Positions 2,870-21,313 of a DNA stretch of 21,313 bases are shown piece by piece. The position numbers and the translations under genes are program-made. Under the pieces are notes generated by a model, which made no database searches, was not told the DNA's origin, and saw only the letters and a list, made by a program, of their open reading frames with translations. Numbering within the stretch: position 1 is the first letter of the stretch; each line of letters begins with the position of its first letter. Source of the DNA: a virus. Where the stretch lies: UHGV virus genome UHGV-0231970; one strand, given 5' to 3'.

Positions 2870-2878
2870 GGGATGTTT

Positions 2879-3211
2879 ATGACGAGCAAAGAAACCTTTA
2901 CCCATTACCAGCCGCTGGGCAACAGTGACCCGGCTCATACCGCAACCGCGCCCGGCGGATTGAGTGCGAAAGCGCCTGCAATGACCCCGCTGATGCTGGA
3001 CACCTCCAGCCGTAAGCTGGTTGCGTGGGATGGCACCACCGACGGTGCTGCCGTTGGCATTCTTGCGGTTGCTGCTGACCAGACCAGCACCACGCTGACG
3101 TTCTACAAGTCCGGCACGTTCCGTTATGAGGATGTGCTCTGGCCGGAGGCTGCCAGCGACGAGACGAAAAAACGGACCGCGTTTGCCGGAACGGCAATCA
3201 GCATCGTTTAA
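2879..3211 (+). CDS. D: Head decoration protein gpD
   Basis: ORF 2873..3211; [27 protein letters not shown]... matches lambda gpD (110 aa) from ATG 2879. The ATG at 2873 is an alternative start two codons upstream. Confidence 0.9.
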
Positions 3212-3228
3212 CTTTACCCTTCATCACT

Positions 3229-3253
3229 AAAGGCCGCCTGTGCGGCTTTTTTT
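3229..3253 (+). terminator. Intrinsic-terminator-like hairpin between D and E (stem GCCGC / GCGGC, loop CTGT, followed by a T-run)
   Basis: Read directly: AAAGGCCGC-CTGT-GCGGCTTTTTTT. The A-tract and T-tract extend the stem, so it could act in either direction. Sits between D stop (3211) and E start (3267). Confidence 0.45.
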
Positions 3254-3266
3254 ACGGGATTTTTTT

Positions 3267-4292
3267 ATGTCGATGTACACAACCGCCCAGCTGCTGGCGG
3301 CAAATGAGCAGAAATTTAAGTTTGATCCGCTGTTTCTGCGTCTCTTTTTCCGTGAGAGCTATCCCTTCACTACGGAGAAAGTCTATCTCTCACAAATTCC
3401 GGGACTGGTAAACATGGCGCTGTACGTTTCGCCGATTGTTTCCGGTGAGGTTATCCGTTCCCGTGGCGGCTCCACCTCTGAATTTACGCCGGGATATGTC
3501 AAACCCAAGCATGAAGTGAATCCGCAGATGACCCTGCGTCGCCTGCCGGATGAAGATCCGCAGAATCTGGCGGACCCGGCTTACCGCCGCCGTCGCATCA
3601 TCCTGCAGAACATGCGTGACGAAGAGCTGGCCATTGCTCAGGTCGAAGAGATGCAGGCAGTTTCTGCCGTGCTCAAGGGCAAATACACCATGACCGGTGA
3701 AGCCTTCGATCCGGTTGAGGTGGATATGGGCCGCAGTGCGGCGAACAACATCACGCAGTCCGGCGGCACGGAGTGGAGCAAGCGTGACAAGTCCACGTAT
3801 GACCCGACCGACGATATCGAAGCCTACGCGCTGAACGCCAGCGGCGTGGTGAATATCATCGTGTTTGATCCGAAAGGCTGGGCGCTGTTCCGTTCCTTCA
3901 AAGCCGTCAAGGAGAAGCTGGATACCCGTCGCGGCTCTCATTCCGAGCTGGAGACAGCGGTGAAAGACCTGGGTAAAGCGGTGTCCTATAAGGGGATGTA
4001 TGGCGATGTGGCCATCGTCGTGTATTCCGGACAGTACGTGGAAAACGGCGTCAAAAAGAACTTCCTGCCGGACAACACGATGGTGCTGGGTAACACTCAT
4101 GCACGCGGTCTGCGCACCTATGGCTGTATTCAGGATGCGGATGCATTGAGTGAGGGTATTAATGCGTCTCCCCGTTATCCGAAAAACTGGAAGACATCCG
4201 GCGATCCGGCGCGAGAGTTCACCATGATTCAGTCAGCACCGCTGATGCTGCTGGCTGATCCTGATGAGTTCGTGTCCGTTCAACTGGCGTAA
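3267..4292 (+). CDS. E: Major capsid protein gpE
   Basis: ORF 3240..4292; MSMYTTAQLLAANEQKFKFDPLFLRLFF... matches lambda gpE (341 aa) from ATG 3267. The GTG at 3240 lies inside the upstream hairpin and is unlikely to be used. Confidence 0.95.
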   Translation: MSMYTTAQLLAANEQKFKFDPLFLRLFFRESYPFTTEKVYLSQIPGLVNMALYVSPIVSGEVIRSRGGSTSEFTPGYVKPKHEVNPQMTLRRLPDEDPQNLADPAYRRRRIILQNMRDEELAIAQVEEMQAVSAVLKGKYTMTGEAFDPVEVDMGRSAANNITQSGGTEWSKRDKSTYDPTDDIEAYALNASGVVNIIVFDPKGWALFRSFKAVKEKLDTRRGSHSELETAVKDLGKAVSYKGMYGDVAIVVYSGQYVENGVKKNFLPDNTMVLGNTHARGLRTYGCIQDADALSEGINASPRYPKNWKTSGDPAREFTMIQSAPLMLLADPDEFVSVQLA

Positions 4293-4294
4293 TC

Positions 4295-4312
4295 ATGGCC
4301 CTTCGGGGCCAT
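4295..4312 (+). promoter_or_regulatory. Perfect 7-bp stem with TTCG (UUCG) tetraloop immediately after the E stop codon
   Basis: Read directly: ATGGCCC-TTCG-GGGCCAT at 4295-4312, followed by TTTCTCTC. The ATG inside the stem (4295) is the upstream alternative start of the FI ORF. Confidence 0.4.
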
Positions 4313-4333
4313 TTTCTCTCTGTGGAGGAGTCC

Positions 4334-4729
4334 ATGACGAAAGATGAACTGATTGCCCGTCTTCAGGTGCTGGGTGAGCAACTGAACCGTGATGTCAGCC
4401 TGACGGGGACGAAAGAAGAACTGGCGCTCCGTGTGGCAGAGCTGGAAGAGGAGCTTGATGACACGGATGACGCTGCCGGTCAGGACACATCTGTCAGCCC
4501 GGAAAATGCGCTGACCGGACATGAAAATGAGGTGGTATCAGCGCAGCCGGATACCGTGACTGATACGGCTGATCTGGTCACGGTTGTGGCACTGGTGACG
4601 CTGCATACCGATGCACTTCACGCCACGCGGGATGAGGCTGTGGCATTTGTGCTGCCGGGAACGGCGTTCCGTGTCTCTGCCGGTGTGTCAGCTGAAATGA
4701 CAGAGCGCGGCCTGGCCAGAATGCAATAA
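4334..4729 (+). CDS. FI: DNA packaging / head assembly protein gpFI
   Basis: ORF 4295..4729; MTKDELIARLQVLGEQLNRDVSLTGTKEELALRVAELEEELDD... matches lambda FI from ATG 4334, preceded by GGAGGAG (4324-4330). Confidence 0.85.
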   Translation: MTKDELIARLQVLGEQLNRDVSLTGTKEELALRVAELEEELDDTDDAAGQDTSVSPENALTGHENEVVSAQPDTVTDTADLVTVVALVTLHTDALHATRDEAVAFVLPGTAFRVSAGVSAEMTERGLARMQ

Positions 4730-4740
4730 CGGGAGGCGCT

Positions 4741-5094
4741 GTGGCTGATTTCGATAACCTGTTCGATGCTGCCATTGCCCGCGCCGATGAAACGATACGC
4801 GGGTACATGGGAACGTCAGCCACCATGACATCCGGTGAGCAGTCCGGCGCAGTAATACGTGGTGTTTTTGATGACCCTGAAAATATCAGCTATGCCGGAC
4901 AGGGCGTGCGCGTTGAAGGCTCCAGCCCGTCCCTGTTTGTCCGGACTGATGATGTGCGGCAACTGCGGCGTGGAGACACGCTGACCATCGGTGAGGAAAA
5001 CTTCTGGATAGACCGGGTTTCGCCGGATGATGGTGGAAGCTGTCATCTCTGGCTTGGGCGGGGCGTACCGCCTGCCGTTAACCGTCGCCGCTGA
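4741..5094 (+). CDS. FII: Head-tail joining (head completion) protein gpFII
   Basis: ORF 4741..5094 (117 aa, GTG start) matches lambda FII over its full length (MADFDNLFDAAIARADETIRGYMGTS...). GGGAGG at 4731-4736. Confidence 0.9.
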   Translation: MADFDNLFDAAIARADETIRGYMGTSATMTSGEQSGAVIRGVFDDPENISYAGQGVRVEGSSPSLFVRTDDVRQLRRGDTLTIGEENFWIDRVSPDDGGSCHLWLGRGVPPAVNRRR

Positions 5095-5105
5095 AAGGGG
5101 GATGT

Positions 5106-5684
5106 ATGGCCATAAAAGGTCTTGAGCAGGCCGTTGAAAACCTCAGCCGTATCAGCAAAACGGCGGTGCCTGGTGCCGCCGCAATGGCCATTAACCGCGT
5201 TGCTTCATCCGCGATATCGCAGTCGGCGTCACAGGTTGCCCGTGAGACAAAGGTACGCCGGAAACTGGTAAAGGAAAGGGCCAGGCTGAAAAGGGCCACG
5301 GTCAAAAATCCGCAGGCCAGAATCAAAGTTAACCGGGGGGATTTGCCCGTAATAAAGCTGGGTAACGCGCGGATTGTCCTGTCCCGACGCAGGCGTCGTA
5401 AAAAGGGGCAGCGTTCAGCCCTGAAAGGTGGCGGCAGCGTGCTTGTGGTGGGAAACCGTCGTATTCCCGGCGCGTTTATTCAGCAACTGAAAAATGGCCG
5501 CTGGCATGTCATGCAGCGTGTGGCCGGGAAAAACCGTTACCCCATTGATGTGTTGAAAATCCCGATGGCGGTGCCGCTGACCACGGCGTTTAAACAGAAT
5601 ATTGAACGGATACGGCGTGAACGTCTTCCGAAAGAGCTGGGCTATGCGCTGCAGCATCAACTGAGAATGGTAATAAAGCGATGA
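5106..5684 (+). CDS. Z: Minor tail protein gpZ (tail completion)
   Basis: ORF 5106..5684, 192 aa, MAIKGLEQAVENLSRISKTAVPGAAAMAINRV... matches lambda Z. Stop TGA overlaps the U start as ATGA. Confidence 0.9.
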   Translation: MAIKGLEQAVENLSRISKTAVPGAAAMAINRVASSAISQSASQVARETKVRRKLVKERARLKRATVKNPQARIKVNRGDLPVIKLGNARIVLSRRRRRKKGQRSALKGGGSVLVVGNRRIPGAFIQQLKNGRWHVMQRVAGKNRYPIDVLKIPMAVPLTTAFKQNIERIRRERLPKELGYALQHQLRMVIKR

Positions 5685-6076
5685 AACATACTGAACTCCG
5701 TGCAGCCGTACTGGATGCACTGGAGAAGCATGACACCGGGGCGACGTTTTTTGATGGTCGCCCCGCTGTTTTTGATGAGGCGGATTTTCCGGCAGTTGCC
5801 GTTTATCTCACCGGCGCTGAATACACGGGCGAAGAGCTGGACAGCGATACCTGGCAGGCGGAGCTGCATATCGAAGTTTTCCTGCCTGCTCAGGTGCCGG
5901 ATTCAGAGCTGGATGAGTGGATGGAGTCCCGGATTTATCCGGTGATGAGTGATATCCCGGCACTGTCAGATTTGATCACCAGTATGGTGGCCAGCGGCTA
6001 TGACTACCGGCGCGACGATGATGCGGGCCTGTGGAGTTCAGCCGATCTGACTTATGTCATTACCTATGAAATGTGA
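5681..6076 (+). CDS. U: Tail tube terminator protein gpU
   Basis: ORF 5681..6076, 131 aa, [39 protein letters not shown]... matches lambda U. Confidence 0.9.
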
Positions 6077-6083
6077 GGACGCT

Positions 6084-6824
6084 ATGCCTGTACCAAATCC
6101 TGTAATGCCGGTGAAAGGTGCCGGGACCACCCTGTGGGTTTATAAGGGAAGCGGTGACCCTTATGCGAATCCGCTTTCAGACGTTGACTGGTCGCGTCTG
6201 GCAAAAGTTAAAGACCTGACGCCCGGCGAACTGACCGCTGAGTCCTATGACGACAGCTATCTCGATGATGAAGATGCAGACTGGACTGCGACCGGGCAGG
6301 GGCAGAAATCTGCCGGAGATACCAGCTTCACGCTGGCGTGGATGCCCGGAGAGCAGGGGCAGCAGGCGCTGCTGGCGTGGTTTAATGAAGGGGATACCCG
6401 AGCCTATAAAATCCGCTTCCCGAACGGCACGGTCGATGTGTTCCGCGGCTGGGTCAGCAGTATCGGTAAGGCGGTGACGGCGAAGGAAGTGATCACCCGC
6501 ACGGTGAAGGTCACCAATGTGGGCCGTCCGTCGATGGCAGAAGATCGCAGCACGGTGACGGCGACAACCGGCATGACTGTGACGCCTGCCAGCACCTCGG
6601 TGGTGAAAGGGCAGAGCACCACGCTGACCGTGGCATTCCAGCCGGAAGGCGCAACCGACAAGAGCTTCCGTGCGGTGTCTGCGGATAAAACAAAAGCCAC
6701 CGTGTCGGTCAGTGGTATGACCATCACCGTGAAAGGTGTTGCTGCAGGCAAGGTCAACATTCCGGTCGTATCCGGTAATGGTGAGTTTGCTGCGGTTGCA
6801 GAAATCAACGTCACCGCCAGTTAA
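6084..6824 (+). CDS. V: Major tail tube protein gpV (with C-terminal Ig-like domain)
   Basis: ORF 6054..6824; lambda gpV homology starts at ATG 6084 ([22 protein letters not shown]...), GAGGA at 6075-6079. 246 aa. Confidence 0.9.
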
Positions 6825-6839
6825 TCCGGAGAGTCAGCG

Positions 6840-7262
6840 ATGTTCCTGAAAACCGAATCATTTGAACATAACGGTGTGACCGTCACGCTTTCTGAACTGT
6901 CAGCCCTGCAGCGTATTGAGCATCTCGCCCTGATGAAACGACAGGCAGAACAGGCGGAGTCAGACAGCAACCGGAAGTTTACTGTGGAAGACGCCATCAG
7001 AACCGGCGCTTTTGTGGTGGCGATGTCCCTGTGGCATAACCATCCGCAGAAGACAAAGCTGCCTTCTATGAATGAAGCCGTTAAACAGATTGAGCAGGAA
7101 GTGCTTACCACCTGGCCCACGGAGGCAATTTCTCATGCTGAAAACGTGGTGTACCGGCTGTCCGGTATGTATGAGTTTGTGGTGAATGATGCTCCTGAAC
7201 AGACAGAGGACGCCGGGCCTGCAGAGCCTGTTTCTGCGGGAAAGTGTTCGATGGTGAGCTGA
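6840..7262 (+). CDS. G: Tail assembly chaperone gpG
   Basis: ORF 6840..7262, 140 aa, MFLKTESFEHNGVTVTLSELSALQRIEHLALMKRQ... matches lambda G. Confidence 0.9.
   Translation: MFLKTESFEHNGVTVTLSELSALQRIEHLALMKRQAEQAESDSNRKFTVEDAIRTGAFVVAMSLWHNHPQKTKLPSMNEAVKQIEQEVLTTWPTEAISHAENVVYRLSGMYEFVVNDAPEQTEDAGPAEPVSAGKCSMVS
7238..7244 (+). promoter_or_regulatory. Programmed -1 ribosomal frameshift slippery heptamer G GGA AAG (G to G-T)
   Basis: Read directly: GGGAAAG at 7238-7244 in the G frame (codons GCG GGA AAG). The -1 frame from 7244 is open through the T ORF to 7678. Confidence 0.8.
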
Positions 7263-7678
7263 GTTTTGCCCTGAAACTGGCGCGAGAGATGGGGCGACCC
7301 GACTGGCGTGCCATGCTTGCCGGGATGTCATCCACGGAGTATGCCGACTGGCACCGCTTTTACAGTACCCATTATTTTCATGATGTTCTGCTGGATATGC
7401 ACTTTTCCGGGCTGACGTACACCGTGCTCAGCCTGTTTTTCAGCGATCCGGATATGCATCCGCTGGATTTCAGTCTGCTTAACCGGCGCGAGGCTGACGA
7501 AGAGCCTGAAGATGATGTGCTGATGCAGAAAGCGGCAGGGCTTGCCGGAGGTGTCCGCTTTGGCCCGGACGGGAATGAAGTTATCCCCGCTTCCCCGGAT
7601 GTGGCGGACATGACGGAGGATGACGTAATGCTGATGACAGTATCAGAAGGGATCGCAGGAGGAGTCCGGTATGGCTGA
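7244..7678 (+). CDS. T: T segment of the tail assembly chaperone fusion gpGT (expressed as G residues 1-~135 + T via -1 frameshift)
   Basis: ORF 7244..7678 (FDGELSFALKLAREMGRPDWRAMLAGMSSTEYADW...) matches lambda gpT. It has no independent ATG or SD; the first codon is GTG at the slip site. Confidence 0.85.
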   Translation: MFDGELSFALKLAREMGRPDWRAMLAGMSSTEYADWHRFYSTHYFHDVLLDMHFSGLTYTVLSLFFSDPDMHPLDFSLLNRREADEEPEDDVLMQKAAGLAGGVRFGPDGNEVIPASPDVADMTEDDVMLMTVSEGIAGGVRYG

Positions 7679-10232
7679 ACCGGTAGGCGATCTGGTCGTT
7701 GATTTAAGTCTGGATGCGGCCAGATTTGACGAGCAGATGGCCAGAGTCAGGCGTCATTTTTCCGGTACGGAAACTGATGCGAAAAAAACAGCGGCAGTCG
7801 TTGAACAGTCGCTGAGCCGACAGGCGCTGGCTGCACAGAAAGCGGGGATTTCCGTCGGGCAGTATAAAGCCGCCATGCGTATGCTGCCTGCACAGTTCAC
7901 CGACGTGGCCACGCAGCTTGCAGGCGGGCAAAGCCCGTGGCTGATCCTGCTGCAACAGGGGGGTCAGGTGAAGGACTCCTTCGGCGGGATGATCCCCATG
8001 TTCCGGGGGCTTGCCGGTGCGATCACCCTGCCGATGGTGGGGGCCACCTCGCTGGCGGTGGCGACCGGTGCGCTGGCGTATGCCTGGTATCAGGGCAACT
8101 CAACCCTGTCCGATTTCAACAAAACGCTGGTCCTTTCCGGCAATCAGGCCGGGCTGACGGCAGATCGTATGCTGGTCCTGTCCAGAGCCGGGCAGGCGGC
8201 AGGGCTGACGTTTAACCAGACCAGCGAGTCACTCAGTGCACTGGTTAAGGCGGGGGTAAGTGGTGAGGCTCAGATTGCGTCCATCAGCCAGAGTGTGGCG
8301 CGTTTCTCTTCTGCATCCGGTGTGGAGGTGGACAAGGTCGCTGAAGCCTTCGGGAAGCTGACCACTGACCCGACGTCGGGGCTGACGGCGATGGCGCGCC
8401 AGTTCCATAACGTGACGGCGGAGCAGATTGCGTATGTTGCTCAGTTGCAGCGTTCCGGCGATGAAGCCGGGGCATTGCAGGCGGCGAACGAAGCCGCAAC
8501 GAAAGGGTTTGATGACCAGACCCGCCGCCTGAAAGAGAACATGGGCACGCTGGAGACCTGGGCAGACAGGACAGCGCGGGCATTCAAATCCATGTGGGAT
8601 GCGGTGCTGGATATTGGTCGTCCTGATACCGCGCAGGAGATGCTGATTAAGGCAGAGGCTGCGTTTAAGAAAGCAGACGACATCTGGAATCTGCGCAAGG
8701 ATGATTATTTTGTTAACGATGAAGCGCGGGCGCGTTACTGGGATGATCGTGAAAAGGCCCGTCTTGCGCTTGAAGCCGCCCGAAAGAAGGCTGAGCAGCA
8801 GACTCAACAGGACAAAAATGCGCAGCAGCAGAGCGATACCGAAGCGTCACGGCTGAAATATACCGAAGAGGCGCAGAAGGCTTACGAACGGCTGCAGACG
8901 CCGCTGGAGAAATATACCGCCCGTCAGGAAGAACTGAACAAGGCACTGAAAGACGGGAAAATCCTGCAGGCGGATTACAACACGCTGATGGCGGCGGCGA
9001 AAAAGGATTATGAAGCGACGCTGAAAAAGCCGAAACAGTCCGGCGTGAAGGTGTCTGCGGGCGATCGTCAGGAAGACAGTGCTCATGCTGCCCTGCTGAC
9101 GCTTCAGGCAGAACTCCGGACGCTGGAGAAGCATGCCGGAGCGAATGAGAAAATCAGCCAGCAGCGCCGGGATTTGTGGAAGGCGGAGAGTCAGTTCGCG
9201 GTACTGGAGGAGGCGGCGCAACGTCGCCAGCTGTCTGCACAGGAGAAATCCCTGCTGGCGCATAAAGATGAGACGCTGGAGTACAAACGCCAGCTGGCTG
9301 CACTTGGCGACAAGGTTACGTATCAGGAGCGCCTGAACGCGCTGGCGCAGCAGGCGGATAAATTCGCACAGCAGCAACGGGCAAAACGGGCCGCCATTGA
9401 TGCGAAAAGCCGGGGGCTGACTGACCGGCAGGCAGAACGGGAAGCCACGGAACAGCTCCTGAAGGAACAGTATGGCGATAATCCGCTGGCGCTGAATAAC
9501 GTCATGTCAGAGCAGAAAAAGACCTGGGCGGCTGAAGACCAGCTTCGCGGGAGCTGGATGGCAGGCCTGAAGTCCGGCTGGAGTGAGTGGGAAGAGAGCG
9601 CCACGGACAGTATGTCGCAGGTTAAAAGTGCAGCCACGCAGACCTTTGATGGTATTGCACAGAATATGGCGGCGATGCTGACCGGCAGTGAGCAGAACTG
9701 GCGCAGCTTCACCCGTTCCGTGCTGTCCATGATGACAGAAATTCTGCTTAAGCAGGCAATGGTGGGGATTGTCGGGAGTATCGGCAGCGCCATTGGCGGT
9801 GCTGCCAGTGGTGGAGCATCCGCGTCAGGCGGTACAGCCATTCAGGCCGCTGCGGCGAAATTCCATTTTGCGACCGGGGGATTTACGGGAACCGGCGGCA
9901 AATATGAGCCAGCGGGGATTGTTCACCGTGGTGAATTTGTCTTCACGAAGGAGGCAACCAGCCGGATTGGTGTCGGCAACCTGTACCGCCTGATGCGGGG
10001 CTATGCGGAAGGTGGTTATGTGGGCGGTGCCGGAAGTCCGGCGCAGATGCGGCGGGCTGAAGGCATTAATTTTAATCAGAACAATCACGTGGTGATTCAG
10101 AACGACGGTACGAATGGTCTGCCAGGTCCACAGATGATGAAGGCAGTGTATGACATGGCCCGCAAGGGTGCCCGTGATGAAATTCAGACACAGATGCGTG
10201 ATGGTGGCCTGTTCTCCGGAGGTGGACGATGA
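7671..10232 (+). CDS. H: Tail tape measure protein gpH
   Basis: ORF 7671..10232, 853 aa, MAEPVGDLVVDLSLDAARFDEQMARVRRHF... matches lambda H. GGAGGAG upstream; overlaps the T 3' end by 8 nt. Confidence 0.95.
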   Translation: MAEPVGDLVVDLSLDAARFDEQMARVRRHFSGTETDAKKTAAVVEQSLSRQALAAQKAGISVGQYKAAMRMLPAQFTDVATQLAGGQSPWLILLQQGGQVKDSFGGMIPMFRGLAGAITLPMVGATSLAVATGALAYAWYQGNSTLSDFNKTLVLSGNQAGLTADRMLVLSRAGQAAGLTFNQTSESLSALVKAGVSGEAQIASISQSVARFSSASGVEVDKVAEAFGKLTTDPTSGLTAMARQFHNVTAEQIAYVAQLQRSGDEAGALQAANEAATKGFDDQTRRLKENMGTLETWADRTARAFKSMWDAVLDIGRPDTAQEMLIKAEAAFKKADDIWNLRKDDYFVNDEARARYWDDREKARLALEAARKKAEQQTQQDKNAQQQSDTEASRLKYTEEAQKAYERLQTPLEKYTARQEELNKALKDGKILQADYNTLMAAAKKDYEATLKKPKQSGVKVSAGDRQEDSAHAALLTLQAELRTLEKHAGANEKISQQRRDLWKAESQFAVLEEAAQRRQLSAQEKSLLAHKDETLEYKRQLAALGDKVTYQERLNALAQQADKFAQQQRAKRAAIDAKSRGLTDRQAEREATEQLLKEQYGDNPLALNNVMSEQKKTWAAEDQLRGSWMAGLKSGWSEWEESATDSMSQVKSAATQTFDGIAQNMAAMLTGSEQNWRSFTRSVLSMMTEILLKQAMVGIVGSIGSAIGGAASGGASASGGTAIQAAAAKFHFATGGFTGTGGKYEPAGIVHRGEFVFTKEATSRIGVGNLYRLMRGYAEGGYVGGAGSPAQMRRAEGINFNQNNHVVIQNDGTNGLPGPQMMKAVYDMARKGARDEIQTQMRDGGLFSGGGR

Positions 10233-10558
10233 AAACCTTCCGCTGGAAAGTGAAACCCGGTATGGATGTGGCTTCGGCCCCTTCTGTAAGAAAGGTGCGC
10301 TTTGGTGATGGCTATTCCCAGCGAGCGCCTGCCGGGCTGAATGCCAACCTGAAAACGTACAGCGTGACGCTTTCTGTCCCCCGTGAGGAGGCCACGGTAC
10401 TGGAGTCGTTTCTGGAAGAGCACGGGGGCTGGAAAGCCTTTCTGTGGACGCCGCCTTATGAGTGGCGGCAGATAAAGGTGACCTGCGCAAAATGGTCGTC
10501 GCGGGTCAGTATGCTGCGTGTTGAGTTCAGCGCAGAGTTTGAACAGGTGGTGAACTGA
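10229..10558 (+). CDS. M: Minor tail protein gpM
   Basis: ORF 10229..10558, 109 aa, MKTFRWKVKPGMDVASAPSVRKVRFGDGYSQRAPAG... matches lambda M. ATGA overlap with the H stop. Confidence 0.9.
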   Translation: MKTFRWKVKPGMDVASAPSVRKVRFGDGYSQRAPAGLNANLKTYSVTLSVPREEATVLESFLEEHGGWKAFLWTPPYEWRQIKVTCAKWSSRVSMLRVEFSAEFEQVVN

Positions 10559-11256
10559 TGCAGGATATCCGGCAGGAAACACTGAATGAATGCACCCGTG
10601 CGGAGCAGTCGGCCAGCGTGGTGCTCTGGGAAATCGACCTGACAGAGGTCGGTGGAGAACGTTATTTTTTCTGTAATGAGCTGAACGAAAAAGGTGAGCC
10701 GGTCACCTGGCAGGGGCGACAGTATCAGCCGTATCCCATTCAGGGGAGTGGTTTTGAACTGAATGGCAAAGGCACCAGTACGCGCCCCACGCTGACGGTT
10801 TCTAACCTGTACGGTATGGTCACCGGGATGGCGGAAGATCTGCAGAGTCTGGTCGGCGGAACGGTGGTCCGGCGTAAGGTTTACGCCCGTTTTCTGGATG
10901 CGGTGAACTTCGTTAACGGAAACAGTGACGCCGATCCGGAGCAGGAGGTGATCAGCCGCTGGCGCATCGAGCAGTGCAGCGAACTGAGCGCGGTGAGTGC
11001 CTCCTTTGTACTGTCCACGCCGACGGAAACAGATGGCGCTGTTTTTCCGGGACGTATCATGCTGGCCAACACCTGCACCTGGACCTATCGCGGCGATGAG
11101 TGCGGTTATCACGGTCCGGCGGTCGCGGATGAATATGACCAGACAACGTCCGATATCACGAAGGATAAATGCAGCAAATGCCTGAGTGGCTGTAAGTTTC
11201 GCAATAACGTCGGCAACTTTGGCGGCTTCCTTTCCATTAACAAACTTTCGCAGTAA
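10558..11256 (+). CDS. L: Minor tail (tail tip) protein gpL
   Basis: ORF 10558..11256, 232 aa, MQDIRQETLNECTRAEQSASVVLWEIDLTEVGGERYFFCNE... matches lambda L. Start ATG overlaps the M stop (TGATG). Cys cluster near the C-terminus (C..C...C..C). Confidence 0.9.
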   Translation: MQDIRQETLNECTRAEQSASVVLWEIDLTEVGGERYFFCNELNEKGEPVTWQGRQYQPYPIQGSGFELNGKGTSTRPTLTVSNLYGMVTGMAEDLQSLVGGTVVRRKVYARFLDAVNFVNGNSDADPEQEVISRWRIEQCSELSAVSASFVLSTPTETDGAVFPGRIMLANTCTWTYRGDECGYHGPAVADEYDQTTSDITKDKCSKCLSGCKFRNNVGNFGGFLSINKLSQ

Positions 11257-11261
11257 ATCCC

Positions 11262-12005
11262 ATGACACAGACAGAATCAGCGATTCTGGCGCACGCCCAG
11301 CGATGTGCGCCAGCGGAGTCGTGCGGCTTCGTGGTGAGAACGCCGGAGGGGGAAAGATATTTTCCCTGCGTGAATATTTCCGGTGAGCCGGAGGATTATT
11401 TCCGGATGGCTCCGGAGGACTGGCTGCAGGCAGAAATGCAGGGTGAGATTGTGGCGCTGGTCCACAGCCACCCCGGTGGTCTGCCCTGGCTGAGTGAGGC
11501 TGACCGGCGGCTGCAGGTGCAGAGTGATTTGCCGTGGTTGCTGGTCTGCCGGGGGGCGATTCATAAGTTCCGCTGTGTGCCGCATCTCACCGGGCGGCGC
11601 TTTGAGCACGGGGTGACGGACTGTTACACGCTGTTCCGGGATGCTTATCATCTGGCGGGGATTGAGATGCCGAATTTTCATCGCGGGGATGACTGGTGGC
11701 GTCACGGCCAGAATCTCTATCTGGATAATCTGGAGGCCACAGGGCTGTATCAGGTGCCGTTGTCATCAGCACAACCGGGCGATGTGCTGCTGTGCTGTTT
11801 TGGTTCATCGGTGCCGAATCATGCCGCCATTTACTGCGGCGACGGTGAGCTGTTGCACCATATTCCTGAACAACTGAGCAAACGAGAGAGGTATACCGAC
11901 AAATGGCAGCGACGCACACACTCCCTCTGGCGTCACCGGGCATGGCACGCATCTGCCTTTACGGGGATTTACAACGATTTGGCCGCCGCATCGACCTTCG
12001 TGTGA
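11262..12005 (+). CDS. K: Tail tip assembly protein gpK (MPN/JAMM-like plus NlpC/P60-like peptidase domains)
   Basis: ORF 11262..12005 (247 aa) begins 6 nt after the L stop. Lambda K homology throughout; HSHPGG (JAMM-like HxH) and a Cys-His pair (GVTDCYTLF ... NHAAIY). An internal ATG at 11406 would give the 199-aa form; the 3' end overlaps I by 103 nt. Confidence 0.8.
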   Translation: MTQTESAILAHAQRCAPAESCGFVVRTPEGERYFPCVNISGEPEDYFRMAPEDWLQAEMQGEIVALVHSHPGGLPWLSEADRRLQVQSDLPWLLVCRGAIHKFRCVPHLTGRRFEHGVTDCYTLFRDAYHLAGIEMPNFHRGDDWWRHGQNLYLDNLEATGLYQVPLSSAQPGDVLLCCFGSSVPNHAAIYCGDGELLHHIPEQLSKRERYTDKWQRRTHSLWRHRAWHASAFTGIYNDLAAASTFV

Positions 12006-12574
12006 AAACGGGGGCTGAAGCCATCCGGGCACTGGCCACACAGCTCCCGGCGTTTCGTCAGAAACTGAGCGACGGCTGGTATCAGGTACGGATTGCCGGG
12101 CGGGACGTCAGCACGTCCGGGTTAACGGCGCAGTTACATGAGACTCTGCCTGATGGCGCTGTGATTCATATTGTTCCCAGAGTCGCCGGGGCCAAGTCAG
12201 GTGGCGTATTCCAGATTGTCCTGGGGGCTGCCGCCATTGCCGGATCATTCTTTACCGCCGGAGCCACCCTTGCAGCATGGGGGGCAGCCATTGGGGCCGG
12301 TGGTATGACCGGCATCCTGTTTTCTCTCGGTGCCAGTATGGTACTTGGTGGTGTGGCGCAGATGCTGGCACCGAAAGCCAGGACGCCCACGGCAGCAAGT
12401 ACAGATAACGGCAAACAGAACACCTATTTCTCCTCACTGGATAACATGGTTGCCCAGGGCAATGTTCTGCCCGTTCTGTACGGTGAAATGCGCGTGGGGT
12501 CGCGGGTGGTCTCTCAGGAGATCAGCACGGCAGACGAAGGGGATGGTGGTCAGGTTGTGGTGATTGGTCGCTGA
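11903..12574 (+). CDS. I: Tail tip assembly protein gpI
   Basis: ORF 11903..12574, 223 aa, MAATHTLPLASPGMARICLYGDLQRFGRRIDLRVKTGAEAIRAL... matches lambda I. Gly/Ala-rich hydrophobic C-terminal half. Confidence 0.9.
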   Translation: MAATHTLPLASPGMARICLYGDLQRFGRRIDLRVKTGAEAIRALATQLPAFRQKLSDGWYQVRIAGRDVSTSGLTAQLHETLPDGAVIHIVPRVAGAKSGGVFQIVLGAAAIAGSFFTAGATLAAWGAAIGAGGMTGILFSLGASMVLGGVAQMLAPKARTPTAASTDNGKQNTYFSSLDNMVAQGNVLPVLYGEMRVGSRVVSQEISTADEGDGGQVVVIGR

Positions 12575-12591
12575 TGAAAAACGTTTATGTG

Positions 12592-12612
12592 AAACCGCCT
12601 GCGGGCGGTTTT
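12592..12612 (+). terminator. Hairpin between I and J (AAACCGCC-TGCG-GGCGGTTT followed by T)
   Basis: Read directly; 8-bp GC-rich stem, 4-nt loop, short T-run (TTTTGTCGTTT). J RBS GAGGA and ATG 12634 follow. Confidence 0.4.
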
Positions 12613-12630
12613 GTCGTTTATGGAGCGTGA

Positions 12631-16032
<3,402 letters not shown>

Positions 16033-16050
16033 ATTTTATAACTCAGAACG

Positions 16051-16074
16051 GGCGTCAGAAATGACGCCTTTTTT
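16051..16074 (+). terminator. Rho-independent terminator after J (GGCGTCA-GAAA-TGACGCC + TTTTTT)
   Basis: Read directly: perfect 7-bp stem, GAAA loop, six T immediately 3'; 19 nt after the J stop. Confidence 0.7.
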
Positions 16075-16098
16075 ATTGCAGAAAAGCGAGAGGTAATT

Positions 16099-16698
16099 AT
16101 GCGTAAACTTTATGCCGCCATTTTGTCCGCAGCCATTTGTCTGGCCGTATCAGGTGCGCCTGCATGGGCGTCTGAACATCAGTCCACGCTGAGCGCGGGG
16201 TATCTTCATGCCTCGACGAACGTTCCCGGCAGCGATGATCTGAACGGGATTAACGTGAAATACCGTTATGAGTTTACGGACACACTGGGGATGGTGACGT
16301 CATTCAGCTATGCAGGAGACAAGAATCGCCAGCTGACTCATTACAGCGATACCCGCTGGCATGAAGATTCCGTTCGTAACCGCTGGTTCAGCGTAATGGC
16401 GGGGCCGTCTGTGCGCGTGAATGAATGGTTCAGCGCGTATGCGATGGCGGGTGTGGCTTACAGCCGTGTGTCGACTTTCTCCGGGGATTATCTCCGCGTA
16501 ACTGACAACAAGGGGAAAACGCACGATGTGCTGACCGGAAGTGATGACGGTCGCCACAGCAACACGTCTCTGGCGTGGGGAGCTGGCGTGCAGTTTAACC
16601 CGACCGAATCCGTGGCCATTGATGTCGCTTATGAAGGCTCCGGCAGTGGTGACTGGCGCACTGACGGGTTCATCGTGGGTGTTGGTTATAAATTCTGA
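16099..16698 (+). CDS. lom: Lom-family outer membrane protein (Ail/Lom/PagC beta-barrel family; lysogenic-conversion moron)
   Basis: ORF 16099..16698, 199 aa. Signal-peptide-like N-terminus (MRKLYAAILSAAICLAVSGAPAWA). The C-terminal half (...MAGPSVRVNEWFSAYAMAGVAYSRV... AYEGSGSGDWRTDGFIVGVGYKF) matches lambda Lom including the terminal aromatic residue. RBS AGAGG upstream. Confidence 0.85.
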   Translation: MRKLYAAILSAAICLAVSGAPAWASEHQSTLSAGYLHASTNVPGSDDLNGINVKYRYEFTDTLGMVTSFSYAGDKNRQLTHYSDTRWHEDSVRNRWFSVMAGPSVRVNEWFSAYAMAGVAYSRVSTFSGDYLRVTDNKGKTHDVLTGSDDGRHSNTSLAWGAGVQFNPTESVAIDVAYEGSGSGDWRTDGFIVGVGYKF

Positions 16699-16724
16699 TT
16701 AGCCAGGTAACACAGTGTTATGAC

Positions 16725-16751
16725 AGCCCGCCGGTTCAGGCGGGCTTTTTT
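16725..16751 (+). terminator. Rho-independent terminator after lom (AGCCCGCC-GGTTCA-GGCGGGCT + TTTTTT)
   Basis: Read directly: 8-bp GC stem, 6-nt loop, T-run 16746-16750. Confidence 0.7.
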
Positions 16752-16762
16752 GTGGGGTGAAT

Positions 16763-19700
16763 ATGGCAGTAAAAATTTCAGGTGTACTGAAAGACGGCAC
16801 AGGAAAACCGGTACAGAACTGCACAATCCAGCTGAAAGCAAAACGTAACAGTACCACGGTGGTGGTGAACACGCTGGCATCTGAAAATCTGGATGAAGCC
16901 GGGCGTTACAGTATGGACGTTGAGTACGGTCAGTACAGCGTTATTCTGTTGGTGGAAGGATTCCCGCCGTCACATGCCGGGACCATCACAGTGTATGAAG
17001 ATTCCCGACCCGGTACGCTGAATGATTTTCTCGGTGCCATGACGGAGGATGATGCCCGTCCGGAGGCACTGCGCCGTTTTGAGCTGATGGTGGAAGAGGT
17101 GGCGCGTAACGCGTCCGTGGTGGCACAGAACACGGCAGCCGCGAAGAAGTCAGCCAGTGATGCCAGCACATCAGCCCGTGAGGCGGCAACCCATGCGACT
17201 GATGCTGCAGGCTCAGCACGCGCAGCCAGCACGTCAGCCGGACAGGCCGCGTCGTCGGCTCAGTCAGCGTCTTCCAGCGCAGGAACGGCATCAACAAAGG
17301 CCACTGAAGCCTCAAAAAGTGCTGCCGCTGCAGAGTCCTCAAAAAGCGCGGCGGCTACCAGTGCCGGTGCGGCGAAAACGTCAGAAACGAATGCGGCAGC
17401 GTCAGAACAATCAGCCGCCACTTCTGCATCCACCGCGACCACGAAAGCGTCAGAAGCTGCCACCTCAGCCAGGGATGCGTCGGCTTCAAAAGAGGCGGCA
17501 AAATCATCAGAAACGAACGCATCATCAAGCGCCAGTAGTGCAGCTTCCTCGGCAACGGCGGCAGGAAATTCCGCGAAGGCGGCAAAGACGTCTGAGACAA
17601 ACGCCAGGTCCTCTGAAACGGCAGCAGCACAGAGTGCCTCCGCAGCAGCAGGCTCAAAAACAGCGGCTGTGTCGTCGGCCAGTGCCGCGTCAACAAGTGC
17701 CGGGCAGGCCTCAGCCAGTGCCACCGCCGCCGGAAAATCGGCAGAAAGCGCCGCATCATCCGCTTCAACAGCCACAACGAAGGCTGGCGAAGCCACTGAA
17801 CAGGCCACTGCAGCAGCGAGGGCTGCTTCCGCAGCGAAGACATCCGAAACGAACGCGAAAGCGTCGGAAACCAGCGCAGAATCCTCAAAAACGGCTGCCG
17901 CATCGTCCGCCAGTTCGGCGGCGTCATCGGCATCATCGGCGTCTGCTTCAAAAGATGAGGCGACCAGACAGGCGTCAGCAGCGAGGGGCAGCGCCACGAC
18001 GGCATCCACGAAGGCGACAGAGGCTGCTGGCAGTGCGGCAGCGGCAGCACAGAGCAAAAGTACGGCAGAATCCGCAGCAACTCGCGCTGAGACAGCGGCA
18101 AAACGGGCAGAGGATATTGCATCCGCCGTGGCGCTTGAGGATGCGAGCACGACGAAAAAGGGGATAGTACAGCTCAGCAGTGCGACTAACAGCACGTCTG
18201 AAACGCTGGCGGCAACGCCAAAGGCAGTAAAAGCAGCCTATGACAATGCAGAGAAACGTCTGCAGAAAGACCAGAACGGTGCTGATATTCCCGACAAGGA
18301 CCGCTTCCTGAGTAACATTAATGTTTACAGCAAAGGTGAAGTGGATCAGAAAAAGGGGATGCGATACGTTGTGGTAAATGCCCCGGCGGGTGTCCAGGAA
18401 GGTAAATATTATCCGTTAGTGATAAAAAGGAATGACAGCCATCGGGCATCCCGCGTTGTCATTTCAACGCCAAGTCGCTTAGCTAATCACAGAATGAATA
18501 ATTGTGAGTTTAATGGTTTTGTTTGCGCAGGCGGCTGGACGGACCGGGGTAGCTATGCCTGTGGTATGTTCTGGGCTTATTCATCATCGGAACGCGCTAT
18601 TCATTCCATTCTGATGAGTAATAAAGGCGATACCGTAGACAGCGTATTCTATATAGAAGGTGGGGCATTTCCCGTAGAGGTCTTTTTAGAAGAAGGTCTC
18701 TCCGTTACTGCACCTGCTTCTGATTATATTGTTGCTGAAACGACTTATAAATTTGGCGCAACTGATCCTTATTCTGAATCAGTTGCGGTAAATTTAATTT
18801 TAGATTTTAAACAAGGTAATGGATTTTATAGTTCGTATCCTGTTTTGAGTAAGTCAGACATTAGCGGGAATAAGATTTACGCTAATGATGAAGTTATTGT
18901 CCGTAGTCAGAACGCGTTAAGGATGATTGCAGGTGATTACGGTGTCATATGGCGAAATGATGGAGCAAATACTTACTTGCTCATGACTGATAAAGGCGAC
19001 CAGTACGGTGGCTGGAACGGTCTTCGACCATTTGCAGTAAATAACGCAACAGGTGAAGTGACGATCAATACACCACTTAATTCTCCTAAGGGGATTAAGG
19101 GAAATTCTTATACAGCTACGAAACTTCAGACAGCAATAAAAATATCTGGTGTTTCGTTTGATGGTTCTACTGATATCACTTTAACCGCTGCGCATGTTGC
19201 TGCTTTTGCCAGAAGAGCAACGGATACGTATGCCGATGCGGATGGGGGCGTTCCCTGGAATGCCGAATCAGGCGCTTACAATGTCACTCGCTCTGGCGAC
19301 AGCTATATTCTGGTTAACTTCTATACCGGAGTCGGAAGTTGCCGGACCTTGCAGATGAAGGCGCATTACAGAAATGGTGGTCTGTTCTACCGTTCTTCAA
19401 GAGATGGCTATGGTTTTGAGGAAGACTGGGCAGAAGTTTATACCTCGAAAAATCTTCCACCAGAAAGCTACCCAGTCGGTGCACCAATCCCGTGGCCATC
19501 AGATACCGTTCCGTCTGGCTATGCCCTGATGCAGGGGCAGACTTTTGACAAATCTGCTTACCCGAAACTTGCAGCCGCTTATCCGTCAGGCGTGATCCCT
19601 GATATGCGTGGCTGGACGATTAAGGGCAAGCCCACCAGTGATCGAGCCGTATTGTCTCAGGAACAGGACGGCATTAAATCACACACCCACAGCGCCAGCG

Positions 19701-20140
19701 TATCCAGTACGGATTTGGGGACGAAAACCACATCGTCGTTTGATTACGGCACTAAATCCACGAATAACACTGGTGCGCATACCCATAGTGTTAGCGGTAC
19801 GGCTGCTTCAGCCGGTGCACATACCCATTCGATGACATTTGTTTCAGGTGGTTCCAGTGGTGCTCCGGGAAGTGGATCACCTGATTATTCTAAATACAGT
19901 GTTAACACTTCTTCTGCAGGCGCTCATACGCACTCTGTATCGGGTACTGCTGCAAGCGCAGGTGCACACGCACATACTGTCGGTATTGGTGCTCATACGC
20001 ACTCCGTTGCGATTGGTTCACATGGACATACGTCTTCAACGAGATGCCACGATGCCTCATCACTGTTGAAAACAGCCACGAAGCCTGCCGGAATATCTGG
20101 CGGTGCAATATCGATACTGTTTGCTGGCAGACCTGTATGA
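16763..20140 (+). CDS. stf: Side tail fibre protein Stf (long mosaic form, with a non-canonical C-terminal 35 residues)
   Basis: ORF 16757..20140 (the GTG at 16757 gives the ORF-track M; homology-consistent ATG at 16763, [26 protein letters not shown]...). Lambda Stf-like N-terminus, Ala/Ser/Thr-rich repeats, AT-rich central segment, seven His-x-His boxes, then an ending not found in lambda Stf. Confidence 0.85.
19954..20031 (+). repeat. Left copy of a perfect 78-bp inverted repeat (inside the stf coding sequence, His-box region)
   Basis: Direct comparison: 19954-20031 is the exact reverse complement of 20320-20397; identity stops at both outer ends (19953 and 20398 do not pair). Confidence 0.9.
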
Positions 20141-20319
20141 GGCGGAATATATGCGTCAACTTCACCAATAAATTCATTAGTTCCGGCCAGCAGATTATAA
20201 ATTTTTATGGTCCGTGGTTGTTCATTCATTCTGAATGCCATTATGCAAGCCTCACAATATAGTTAAATGCGATGTTTTTGACGGTGTTTTCCGCGTTACC
20301 AGCAGCGTTAACGGTGATG
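20032..20319 (-). other. 288-bp segment between the inverted repeats, carrying the canonical stf 3' end (...[25 protein letters not shown]) and tfa codons 1-~69 on the - strand
   Basis: - strand ORFs 20241..20453 and 19993..20241: the first ends ...[31 protein letters not shown] (lambda Stf C-terminus); the second begins [27 protein letters not shown]... (lambda Tfa N-terminus). They are joined by a TAATG stop/start overlap at 20239-20243. Confidence 0.85.
20035..20241 (-). pseudogene. tfa: tfa' : N-terminal fragment of the tail fibre assembly protein Tfa (about 69 homologous codons, then runs into the antisense of the left repeat)
   Basis: ORF 19993..20241 (-): [70 protein letters not shown] matches the lambda Tfa N-terminus; the remaining 12 residues ([12 protein letters not shown]) are antisense of the stf His-box codons. 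No Tfa C-terminal part anywhere in the window. Confidence 0.8.
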
Positions 20320-20397
20320 GTATGTCCATGTGAACCAATCGCAACGGAGTGCGTATGAGCACCAATACCGACAGTATGTGCGTGTGCACCTGCGCTT
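20320..20397 (+). repeat. Right copy of the perfect 78-bp inverted repeat
   Basis: Exact reverse complement of 19954-20031; on the - strand it encodes [25 protein letters not shown] in the stf frame. Confidence 0.9.
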
Positions 20398-20529
20398 CCG
20401 TGTCTTATCTTCATCATCAACAACGATAAAAATTTTCCCGGTATAGCCAGCACGACGCAACGTCCGGTAAGTCAGAACTTTGTCCGGTCGCCCGTGAGTC
20501 AGAATAAAGGCGCAAAAATCATCACGCAT
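20398..20529 (-). pseudogene. 5' fragment (about 42 codons) of an unidentified gene, truncated at the right inverted-repeat boundary
   Basis: - strand ATG at 20529-20527 preceded by GGAGGAGGA, overlapping the upstream stop as ATGCGTGA. Product [42 protein letters not shown], then the frame enters the repeat and becomes Cys/Arg-rich nonsense (ORF 20308..20550). The pattern I-x-T-x-x-R-P-D ... I-x-V-V-D-D is reminiscent of a GT-A-fold glycosyltransferase N-terminus, but this is weak. Confidence 0.45.
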
Positions 20530-21313
20530 ATTCCTCCTCCTCACCACCATGCATGATCTCCACCATGCGCTGCGTCATCCGGACAAATCCATTTTCAATA
20601 GCCTGCTGATAATCAATGATCACCAGCGCCGACTCCTCGAAAAAACACTGAATTTCAGAGGGGGCGTGAGCGTAATAGTCCGCAATTCTGCTGAAATTAA
20701 ACACCGTGTGACGTTCTGCCGCACACAGGAGGAATTTCTCAATATCAGGCTCAAGGGACGCCGAACGTATCCGGCTGATCAGCTCCTGAGTTTTCGTATC
20801 GTCGTACAGTTCACTGATATCCGGTTTACCGCCCGACGGCTCATAAACAGGCGTATCAATTTTCGTCGTATACGGCTCCTCCTCATTTCCTGTACCGGGC
20901 AAAACATCCGTCAACAGTTCATCAATTTCTGTCGGGATGAAGCCTGTCAGGGAGACATCAAAATCAGCATTGATTAGGTCCGACAGCTCCATCCGCAACA
21001 GATCTTCATCCCAGCCAGCATTCATCGGCAGGCGATTATCTGCCAGGCGGTACGCCTTTTTCTGCTCATCCGTCAGGCCAGACAGAACAATGACCGGAAC
21101 AGAATCCATTTTGAGCATTTCAGCCGCCATAACACGACCGTGACCCGCAATAATTTCGCCCTTTTCGTCAATCAGCACCGGATTAGTCCAGCCGAATTGC
21201 TTAATACTTTCTACCAGTTGTGCCACCTGCTCAGGGCTGTGCGTCCTGGCGTTGTGCGCATACGGTGACAATTCTTGTAATGGGCGATAGACTATCTTTA
21301 ATTTCTCGCTCAT
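20522..21313 (-). CDS. ParB N-terminal-domain (ParB/sulfiredoxin-like nuclease fold) protein; start codon lies exactly at the window edge
   Basis: ORF 20522..21313 (-), 263 aa. Motifs typical of ParB-like domains: LSPYAHNARTH, IAGHGRVMAA (GxxR box), AYRLADNRL. Acidic C-terminal tail (GGEEEEYA) whose codons form the SD of the next gene. Cannot tell whether the protein extends beyond the window. Confidence 0.7.
   Translation of the reverse strand: MSEKLKIVYRPLQELSPYAHNARTHSPEQVAQLVESIKQFGWTNPVLIDEKGEIIAGHGRVMAAEMLKMDSVPVIVLSGLTDEQKKAYRLADNRLPMNAGWDEDLLRMELSDLINADFDVSLTGFIPTEIDELLTDVLPGTGNEEEPYTTKIDTPVYEPSGGKPDISELYDDTKTQELISRIRSASLEPDIEKFLLCAAERHTVFNFSRIADYYAHAPSEIQCFFEESALVIIDYQQAIENGFVRMTQRMVEIMHGGEEEEYA

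Follow-up and report, generated by a model that had tools for sequence, protein, structure and literature searches.

The side-tail-fibre gene stf in the window (the whole stretch of DNA that was analysed, 21,313 nt) carries a series of His-x-His (HxH) boxes near the end of its reading frame, and directly behind the last box the sequence is rearranged. The locus raises two questions, namely whether the boxes bind metal in a needle like that at the tip of T4 gp37, and what the rearrangement does to the fibre. From sequence comparison, the boxes are considered, with a probability of about 0.88, to be the ligands of a tip needle of the T4 gp37 type, in a gene copy that is most likely decaying and without a folded needle.

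The stf reading frame and its histidine boxes

In its present form, the stf ORF encodes 1127 aa from a GTG codon, from which Stf residues are numbered here (Table 1), while the alternative start, ATG 16763, gives 1125 aa. Native Stf sequence stops at aa 1092. Pfam families were matched at aa 3–136 (PF08400), aa 657–760 (PF21446), aa 908–955 (PF07484, Collar, E=7.9e-12), and aa 1003–1016 (PF03335, Phage_fiber repeat). Prophages of over 1000 complete E. coli genomes match the J-lom-stf DNA at 97–98% identity. The intact stf relatives, found in the same J-lom-stf context, are 1115 aa long and are followed by tfa and pin.

Translation and a regex scan revealed exactly seven HxH boxes in the stf ORF, in the order already given in an earlier note on this DNA, and no further HxH outside them in the whole 1127 aa. 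The array spans nt 19682–20029 (aa 976–1091) and holds 14 of the 22 Stf histidines. Residue shuffles of Stf (n=20,000) contained a mean of 0.41 HxH and a maximum of five; seven boxes are far above chance. Two details of the earlier description needed correction. Its start at 19680 misses the reading frame by one base, and translation from there yields nonsense; the codon in frame opens at 19679, and the first His of box 1 is encoded from 19682. The motifs said to be regularly spaced follow each other at uneven distances of 32, 14, 35, 14, 9, and 9 residues, nearly alike to the 32-14-37-14-9-9 of T4 gp37.

Table 1. Features of the stf-tfa region and its right flank (positions in the window)
Feature	Position (nt)	Strand	Residues, alignment, or basis
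stf side-tail-fibre ORF, present form	16757..20140	+	1127 aa from GTG 16757; ORF list
Collar domain, N-terminal part	19463..19681	+	aa 903-975 = gp37 811-882; phmmer alignment to 2XGF; Pfam Collar
Needle stem, outward half, boxes 1-3 (by alignment)	19682..19828	+	aligned to gp37 H883/885, H915/917, H929/931
Box 1, SHTHS	19682-19690	+	aa 976/978
Box 2, GAHTHS	19778-19786	+	aa 1008/1010
Box 3, GAHTHS	19820-19828	+	aa 1022/1024
Tip subdomain, presumed receptor-binding distal pole	19829..19924	+	aa 1025-1056; aligned to gp37 tip 932-959
Needle stem, returning half, boxes 4-7 (by alignment)	19925..20029	+	aligned to gp37 H966/968, H980/982, H989/991, H998/1000
Box 4, GAHTHS	19925-19933	+	aa 1057/1059
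Box 5, GAHAHT	19967-19975	+	aa 1071/1073
Box 6, GAHTHS	19994-20002	+	aa 1080/1082
Box 7, GSHGHT	20021-20029	+	aa 1089/1091
Inverted repeat, left arm, stf boxes 5-7	19954..20031	+	inner end = J1 (20031/20032)
Foreign tail of stf ORF, 35 codons (SSTRCHD...GRPV) + stop	20033..20140	+	antisense of tfa; translation
tfa, first 70 codons, cut at J1	20032..20241	-	then 12 junk codons to 19993
Native stf, last 25 codons + stop	20241..20318	-	= gp37 1002-1026; now on the opposite strand
Inverted repeat, right arm, stf fragment starting at box 5	20320..20397	-	outer end = J2 (20397/20398)
TET-associated glycosyltransferase gene, 5' fragment ('GREB1-related')	20398..20529	-	PF20691, E=3.4e-8; RefSeq annotation of cM2a locus
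ParB/Srx-type YnaK homologue	20522..21313	-	263 aa; PF02195

Homology to the T4 gp37 tip

A phmmer search of PDB sequences aligned Stf aa 903–1095 with chain residues 27–220 of the T4 gp37 tip (2XGF) at E=1.8e-73, with 128 of 192 residues identical (67%), and all 14 box histidines fall on gp37 HxH histidines (14/14; Table 1). In gp37, seven iron ions lie along the needle axis, coordinated by the HxH motifs (PMC6957217; PMC11705849). The needle of gp37 is inserted in the collar and runs out of it and back again, with tip residues 932–959 between boxes 3 and 4 and residues 1010–1026 going back to the collar (PMC6957217). Because all 14 histidines coincide with the iron ligands of gp37, the reading of this region as a gp37-type collar and needle is supported. 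The metal needle of gp37 type proposed in the earlier note is borne out by this match, and the similarity to gp37-type tips that the note had named as a check was found. Its linear picture of boxes at the distal end was mistaken, as the distal pole is placed between boxes 3 and 4, and the tip (aa 1025–1056) lies upstream of the junction.

Identity to gp37 varies along the domain. It reaches 59 of 72 residues (82%) in the collar (gp37 811–881) and 72% and 67% in the stem flanking the tip, and drops to 5 of 28 (18%) in the tip itself, where a 32-aa insert of Stf faces gp37 932–959. A conserved scaffold bearing a variable receptor tip would be expected to give such a profile. As the Stf tip is so divergent and two residues shorter, its receptor contacts probably differ from those of gp37. 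For the reconstituted domain (217 aa), 698 matching phage records were found, T4 gp37 (69%) and lambda Stf (67%) among them. Homologues down to 50% identity retain boxes 1, 2, and 7, with invariant histidines, as well as the 25 aa at the C-terminus. AlphaFold2 modelling of one chain (aa 880–1127, no alignment) returned pLDDT 37 and pTM 0.14, the method being ill-suited to an obligate intertwined trimer.

Judged by its homology with the gp37 tip in the 2XGF crystal structure, Stf would form a thin, beta-stranded needle of three intertwined chains. One HxH pair per chain would supply two imidazoles, and six histidines would bind one metal ion octahedrally (Fe(II) in T4). Since each HxH level from three chains would hold one ion, seven metal ions would be stacked on the needle axis. 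The metal is presumed to be iron by analogy with T4, the sole source of its identity. Each chain would leave the collar, run outward via boxes 1–3 to the hypervariable receptor-binding tip, and return via boxes 4–7; in an intact chain, the 25 conserved residues at the end would complete the stem and lead back into the collar. Folding would require the downstream chaperone Tfa.

Loss of the stf C-terminus and truncation of tfa

Homology to intact stf genes ends at 20031 (megablast break at query 732/733). This break, J1, falls two bases into the Thr codon closing box 7, in agreement with the junction that the earlier note had set directly after this box. The 78 nt before J1 form one arm of an inverted repeat whose arms are 100% complementary and 288 nt apart. 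Between the arms (20032–20319) lie, on the reversed strand, the native 25-codon end of stf and tfa codons 1–70. At 78/78 nt, the native stf end matches the corresponding end of the intact gene in E. coli MB15. Its 25 residues are the most conserved stretch of the family alignment, with 22/25 identical to gp37; they are absent from the present stf ORF and are regained only after an in-silico flip of the segment. The foreign tail now ending the ORF is the reverse complement of sequence within tfa codons 1–70.

The tfa fragment reads MAFRMNEQ...WHLVEDV, compared with ...WHLVEDHRGK in intact TfaR, and no Pfam family was detected in it. The intact chaperone gene directly downstream, which in relatives encodes a Tfa of 191–194 aa, is absent here. 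The in-silico flip yields a 1115-aa Stf with 98% identity to the MB15 Stf and leaves tfa cut at codon 70. Since the conserved 25 residues are lost and tfa is cut at codon 70 and placed on the wrong strand, the gene is disrupted rather than cassette-switched. Judged from conservation, this stf copy is probably dead and would not make a folded needle. A tfa paralogue elsewhere in the genome could serve in trans. The view that the rearrangement replaces whatever follows the needle holds in that 25 residues are swapped for 35 antisense-tfa residues, but the part exchanged is not the receptor-binding one, as the tip lies upstream.

The right flank and the origin of the junctions

The DNA to the right of J1, the right repeat arm included, runs collinear with the Rac-type remnant in E. 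coli cM2a. At J2, the glycosyltransferase fragment is fused to the stf fragment, a deletion junction also present in cM2a. The YnaK homologue, whose gene is annotated beside trkG in relatives, marks the right flank as the early region of a Rac-type prophage. The inner 288 nt differ at three positions from the stf-tfa of MB15, a relative of the left-hand prophage, and at seven from the cM2a remnant.

J1 had been taken for an inversion junction, which is doubtful because the DNA right of 20032 follows a separate Rac-type remnant and not the rest of this prophage's tfa. A simple in-situ inversion of the stf end and tfa start was rejected, since tfa from codon 71 onward should then follow in the flank, where instead, just as in the cM2a remnant, an inverted stf fragment is fused to the glycosyltransferase fragment. 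Recombination between homologous, inverted copies of stf-tfa was discarded too, since J1 would then show unbroken collinearity across the repeat. No microhomology in the inverted sense was found at J1. Both native breakpoints share ACCATC, with the break between AC and CATC, and it is a remote possibility that this motif marks a sequence-specific cleavage from which the head-to-head joint arose. If the chromosome had been inverted between two prophages of the same orientation, for example a phage at the DLP12 site and the Rac remnant, the reciprocal joint, ...GCGTTAACGGTGATG followed by CATCGGGGTAAAACG..., would lie elsewhere in the genome, and a deletion between convergent copies would have removed the DNA between them.

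The 30-nt sequence across J1 occurs in 0/5426 complete E. coli genomes and in none of the representative genomes, viral contigs, or metagenome contigs searched. Neither the chimeric Stf, with GTG or ATG as its start, nor the chimeric Tfa fragment had an exact match on record. J2 occurs exactly in one of the 5426 complete E. coli genomes (cM2a) and is absent from the metagenome and genome collections. A literature search on stfR/tfaR/pinR rearrangements found nothing relevant.

Alternative explanations

The 288-nt segment resembles the invertible fibre segments of Mu (G/Gin), P1 (C/Cin), e14 (P/Pin), and p15B (Min), in which inverted repeats within the fibre gene likewise enclose the fibre 3' end and the 5' end of an assembly gene. 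It could be read as a programmed switch of the Din-invertase type (Gin/Cin/Pin) that exchanges the fibre end, the more so as pin recombinase genes lie 3' of related stf-tfa modules, adjoining the intact stf relatives, and as a flip of the segment restores the stf ORF. Unlike those switches, the window offers one C-terminal cassette, with a single stf 3' end, a single truncated tfa, and no alternative to either; its junction lies downstream of the receptor-binding tip, and its assembly gene is truncated in both orientations. The consensus core of Din-type crossover sites is AAACC-NN-GGTTT. No such core, with up to two mismatches, was found within 6 kb of the junction or anywhere in 14024–21313, and the whole window has six against 7.2 expected. 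No invertase gene is present in the window, and right of the repeat there is no recombinase gene as far as 21313, this stretch being occupied instead by the truncated glycosyltransferase gene and the ParB-like gene. The head-to-head joint of the left half of stf to the left half of tfa would also not be the product of conservative site-specific recombination. The Din-invertase reading is largely refuted and barely credible. A RecA-dependent flip at low frequency between the 78-nt repeats, toggling a truncated and a 1115-aa Stf, is very unlikely. It would fit the perfect identity of the arms, a restored ORF as long as the intact relatives and 98% identical to the MB15 Stf, and an inner segment nearer to MB15 than to the cM2a remnant, but the other orientation was seen in no collection (complete or representative genomes, viral, metagenome), and a chance rearrangement beside a remnant copy would leave the same arrangement. 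As tfa is cut in both states, any function of the flipped Stf would need tfa in trans. It is likewise very unlikely that the repeats form a recombinase-independent, RecA-driven flip-flop by which a resident prophage switches a full-length, iron-needle-bearing Stf on or off while a second cryptic prophage provides Tfa in trans.

That J1 is a chimeric join from sequencing or assembly, the real genome having an intact stf-tfa and a Rac-type remnant elsewhere, is unlikely, though it would account for the absence of J1 and of the chimeric ORF products from the records and for the 98–99% match of each side to ordinary, widespread arrangements. An assembly misled by the shared 78 nt would run collinearly from stf into tfa and would not join them head to head, a graph assembler would require reads across the novel join, and J2, equally rare, is found in an independent complete genome. 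A further alternative concerns the boxes themselves, which might be a beta-strand repeat signature, free of metal or binding one that is not iron. In Pfam, the PF03335 motif is described as no more than a repeat ('Phage tail fibre repeat'), and an alignment includes homologues with shorter needles in which boxes 3 and 4 are missing. This reading is nevertheless highly improbable, given a homologue of solved structure, 67% identical, whose seven Fe are bound by precisely these histidines (PMC6957217), the loss of plaque formation when gp37 H929 or H931 is changed to alanine (PMC6957217), and the invariant histidines of boxes 1, 2, and 7.

Comparison with related fibres and significance

The gp37-type reading places Stf beside T4 gp37 (2XGF; D10 collar, D11 needle), with which it shares a collar followed by a needle with seven HxH at matching positions. 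The chaperone gene stands directly downstream of gp37, as it does in intact stf copies, the chaperone being gp38 in T4 and Tfa for Stf. In contrast to gp37, the remainder of Stf is lambdoid (PF08400 N-terminus), and the copy in the window has other residues in place of its last 25 and an incomplete chaperone gene. Closer relatives are Ur-lambda Stf/Tfa, Rac StfR/TfaR, and Qin StfQ/TfaQ, which have the J-lom-stf-tfa order, the N-terminal domain, and a gp37-like collar and needle in common with the present copy. Lambda Stf residues 578–774 have been modelled on 2XGF (PMC7291167), and the HxH motifs were reported to be conserved in lambda (PMC11705849). In the collar-needle region, lambda Stf is 67% identical to the present Stf but contains eight HxH boxes and, in addition, an SFDYGTK repeat; it is 774 aa long, whereas the present Stf, once restored, has 1115 aa like the Rac/Qin-type Stf. 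The junction after box 7 is unique to the present copy.

An iron needle has already been published for lambda-type Stf, and the present finding is a confirmed and ordinary one. The HxH iron needles of gp37 and lambda-type Stf are textbook knowledge, to which the present Stf adds a further member with a different tip sequence. Since the receptor-binding part of this fold sits in the middle of the His-box array, a rearrangement after the last box cannot retarget the fibre. For annotation, stf should be marked as disrupted, with its C-terminus lost and tfa truncated, and the significance of the locus beyond this is little. As an instance of prophage decay and mosaicism in E. coli, the unique head-to-head junction is a minor curiosity.

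Seven His-x-His boxes in the Stf C-terminus

The window lies at the right-hand end, the late part, of a lambda-like Escherichia coli prophage. Among 5426 complete E. coli genomes, 1099 cover at least 80% of the J-lom-stf region (12000-20031), and the best-matching prophages align with it over its full length at 96.5-98% identity. In these relatives, stf encodes 1115 aa and is followed by the tail fibre assembly (chaperone) gene tfa (191-194 aa) and often next by a pin recombinase gene.

The translation of stf, numbered from GTG 16757, contains seven His-x-His (HxH) motifs (boxes 1-7), exactly those listed in the earlier note and in the same order; the start assigned to the array there, 19680, misses the reading frame by one base. 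The boxes hold 14 of the 22 Stf histidines, and no further HxH occurs among the 1127 residues; 20,000 shuffled Stf sequences gave a mean of 0.41 and a maximum of 5. They lie 32, 14, 35, 14, 9, and 9 residues apart and are therefore not regularly spaced, contrary to what had been claimed. A 20-nt direct-repeat family is still recognisable at the DNA level in four boxes.

Features of the window with their positions and, where applicable, Stf residues
Feature	Position (nt)	Strand	Stf residues (aa)	Basis or remark
Head and tail genes	1-12600	+		ORF list
gpJ	12634-16032	+		ORF list
lom	16099-16698	+		ORF list
stf, long ORF	16757-20140	+		ORF list
Long frames in low-complexity stf part, examples	17157-18167	+		
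	17260-18195	-		
	17355-18122	-		
gp34-type and Mu-S-type domain region	18725-19480	+	657-909	domain matches
HxH cores, boxes 1-7	19682-20029		976-978, 1008-1010, 1022-1024, 1057-1059, 1071-1073, 1080-1082, 1089-1091	
Stf tip	19829-19924	+	1025-1056	mapping from gp37
First 70 tfa codons	20241-20032	-		overlaps stop of stf by one base
Native 25 C-terminal stf codons and stop	20318-20241	-		within the 288-nt segment
TET-associated glycosyltransferase gene, 5' fragment (Pfam TAGT; RefSeq 'GREB1-related protein')	20398-20529	-		fused to stf box 5
ParB/Srx-type YnaK homologue, full-length	20522-21313	-		start codon is the window's last triplet

Homology to the T4 gp37 tip

When the last 327 Stf residues were searched against all PDB sequences, gp37's receptor-binding tip (2XGF), from the long tail fibre of phage T4, was matched at E=1.8e-73 (Stf 903-1095 versus chain residues 27-220), with 128 of 192 aligned residues identical. 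All 14 box histidines pair with gp37 histidines (883/885, 915/917, 929/931, 966/968, 980/982, 989/991, 998/1000), and the gp37 boxes have nearly the spacing of those in Stf (32, 14, 37, 14, 9, and 9). Pfam placed a Phage Tail Collar domain at Stf aa 908-955 and recognised box 2 as a 'Phage tail fibre repeat'; structure prediction for one chain without an alignment gave a pLDDT of 37. Because the homology to 2XGF reaches such a level, a gp37-tip fold can safely be assigned to the Stf C-terminus, and the idea of a gp37-type needle proved right; the trimer geometry and metal content of the Stf needle are proposed by homology. In gp37, such histidines hold seven iron atoms, one site being formed by H929 from three chains, and replacement of H929 or H931 by alanine abolishes plaque formation (PMC6957217). 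The same structure has been summarised as paired histidines (HxH) coordinating seven iron ions, with the motif conserved in lambda (PMC11705849).

In gp37, residues 811-881 and 1010-1026 make up the collar D10, into which the needle D11 (882-1009) is inserted; two segments of D11 (882-931 and 960-1009) build its stem, and between them lies the tip (932-959), which forms the distal pole and bears the receptor-binding residues (PMC6957217). On Stf, this places boxes 1-3 on the strand that runs outward and boxes 4-7 on the one that returns, with the tip between boxes 3 and 4. The fibre therefore has its distal end amid the His-box array rather than after box 7; the earlier placement of the boxes at the distal end has to be revised, as the distal pole is upstream of the junction after box 7. 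The collar is 82% identical to that of gp37, the stem halves reach 72% and 67%, and the tip 18%; by sequence comparison the predicted domain is a conserved scaffold with a variable adhesin.

Box 7 is followed in intact relatives by about 25 residues (here [25 protein letters not shown]), which correspond to gp37 1002-1026, the stem end and collar-completing strand. This stretch also occurs in T4, lambda, a P2-like Salmonella phage, a Yersinia phage, and a Klebsiella prophage and is the most conserved of the whole domain, with eleven invariant columns across homologues of only 50-76% overall identity. Short-needle homologues (P2-like, including Salmonella phage SEN4, and others) have neither the tip nor boxes 3 and 4, and lambda Stf has eight boxes and a duplicated SFDYGTK unit, compared with seven boxes here. 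Box number differs among the aligned homologues (lambda, the Yersinia phage, the Klebsiella prophage, and SEN4), so needle length seems to evolve through the gain or loss of box units.

Before the gp37-like collar and needle, Stf is mosaic too: aa 657-760 are a T4 gp34 trimerisation domain (PF21446), and aa 815-909 form a domain that phage Mu fibre protein S shares (PDB 8ju3, E=1.9e-21). Its Ala/Ser/Thr-rich low-complexity part (about aa 120-470; window 17100-18200) contains long ORFs in several frames on both strands, which are almost certainly composition artefacts and not genes.

A broken stf-tfa copy

Between the arms of a perfect 78-nt inverted repeat (19954-20031 and 20320-20397) lie 288 nt whose minus strand carries the stf 3' end and the tfa start. 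The stf ORF therefore departs from the native sequence at 20031/20032 (J1, the inner end of the left arm), two bases into the Thr codon following box 7, which agrees with the junction recognised earlier after the seventh box, and continues through 35 codons of antisense tfa to a stop at 20140. In-silico flipping of 20032-20319 restores a 1115-aa Stf, 98% identical to that of E. coli MB15, a strain with an intact stf; tfa is cut at codon 70 whichever way the segment points. The rearrangement had been thought to replace the part beyond the needle; instead, it takes away the chaperone gene and a part of the scaffold that is conserved and essential, and this stf copy is therefore most likely a pseudogene.

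E. coli cM2a carries a Rac-type prophage remnant with which the window is collinear from 20032 to its end. In this remnant, trkG, ynaK (ParB-like), and a regulator gene precede a TET-associated glycosyltransferase gene that is truncated and fused straight to stf at box 5, after which come the stf 3' end, full tfaR, and pinR. The outer end of the right arm, J2 (20397/20398), is an old deletion joint of this remnant, found in 1 of 5426 complete E. coli genomes, that of cM2a. Thus, a full-length stf cut after box 7 joins a second, remnant copy head-to-head, the latter truncated at tfa codon 70. Eight of 1282 positions differ from cM2a, seven of them in the inner 288 nt and a single one in the next 994 nt (20320-21313); the inner 288 nt have only three mismatches to MB15 stf-tfa, which suggests, from these sequence differences, gene conversion or a mosaic origin for the segment between the repeats.

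The evidence speaks against the 288-nt segment being an invertible switch. It offers only one fibre end, not two, and the receptor-binding tip lies outside it; the AAACC-NN-GGTTT crossover core was not found near either repeat end, nor did Pfam detect a recombinase gene in the right flank to the window end. The collinearity with the cM2a remnant also argues against a switch, and conservative site-specific recombination would not be expected to yield a joint of two 'left halves'. Homologous recombination between inverted copies was likewise rejected as the source of J1, since it would not give a head-to-head joint. Four histories are compatible with J1: inversion between two co-oriented prophages, e.g., a DLP12-site phage like that of MB15 and the Rac remnant; deletion of DNA lying between convergent copies; template switching in a complex event; and chimeric assembly. 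The joint is without microhomology in the inverted sense. Read in the same sense, both native partners have AC|CATC at the breakpoint (stf ACATAC|CATCACC, tfaR GAAGAC|CATCGGG), which may be chance or hint at a sequence-specific break.

Relation to known tail fibres

The homology of lambda-type Stf C-termini to the gp37 tip, including the collar, six-stranded needle, and OmpC-binding domain, has been published, and T4 and lambda tail fibres are functionally interchangeable (PMC7291167). Searched with the restored 217-aa domain, 698 phage records gave matches, with identities of 69% for T4 gp37 and 67% for lambda Stf; what was recognised, correctly, is therefore a motif already known in a protein family that is known as well. 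J1 was not found elsewhere in complete E. coli genomes, representative genomes, viral contigs, or metagenome contigs, and exact look-up of the chimeric Stf and Tfa-fragment products returned no record. This unique junction is the only unusual item in an otherwise familiar fibre.
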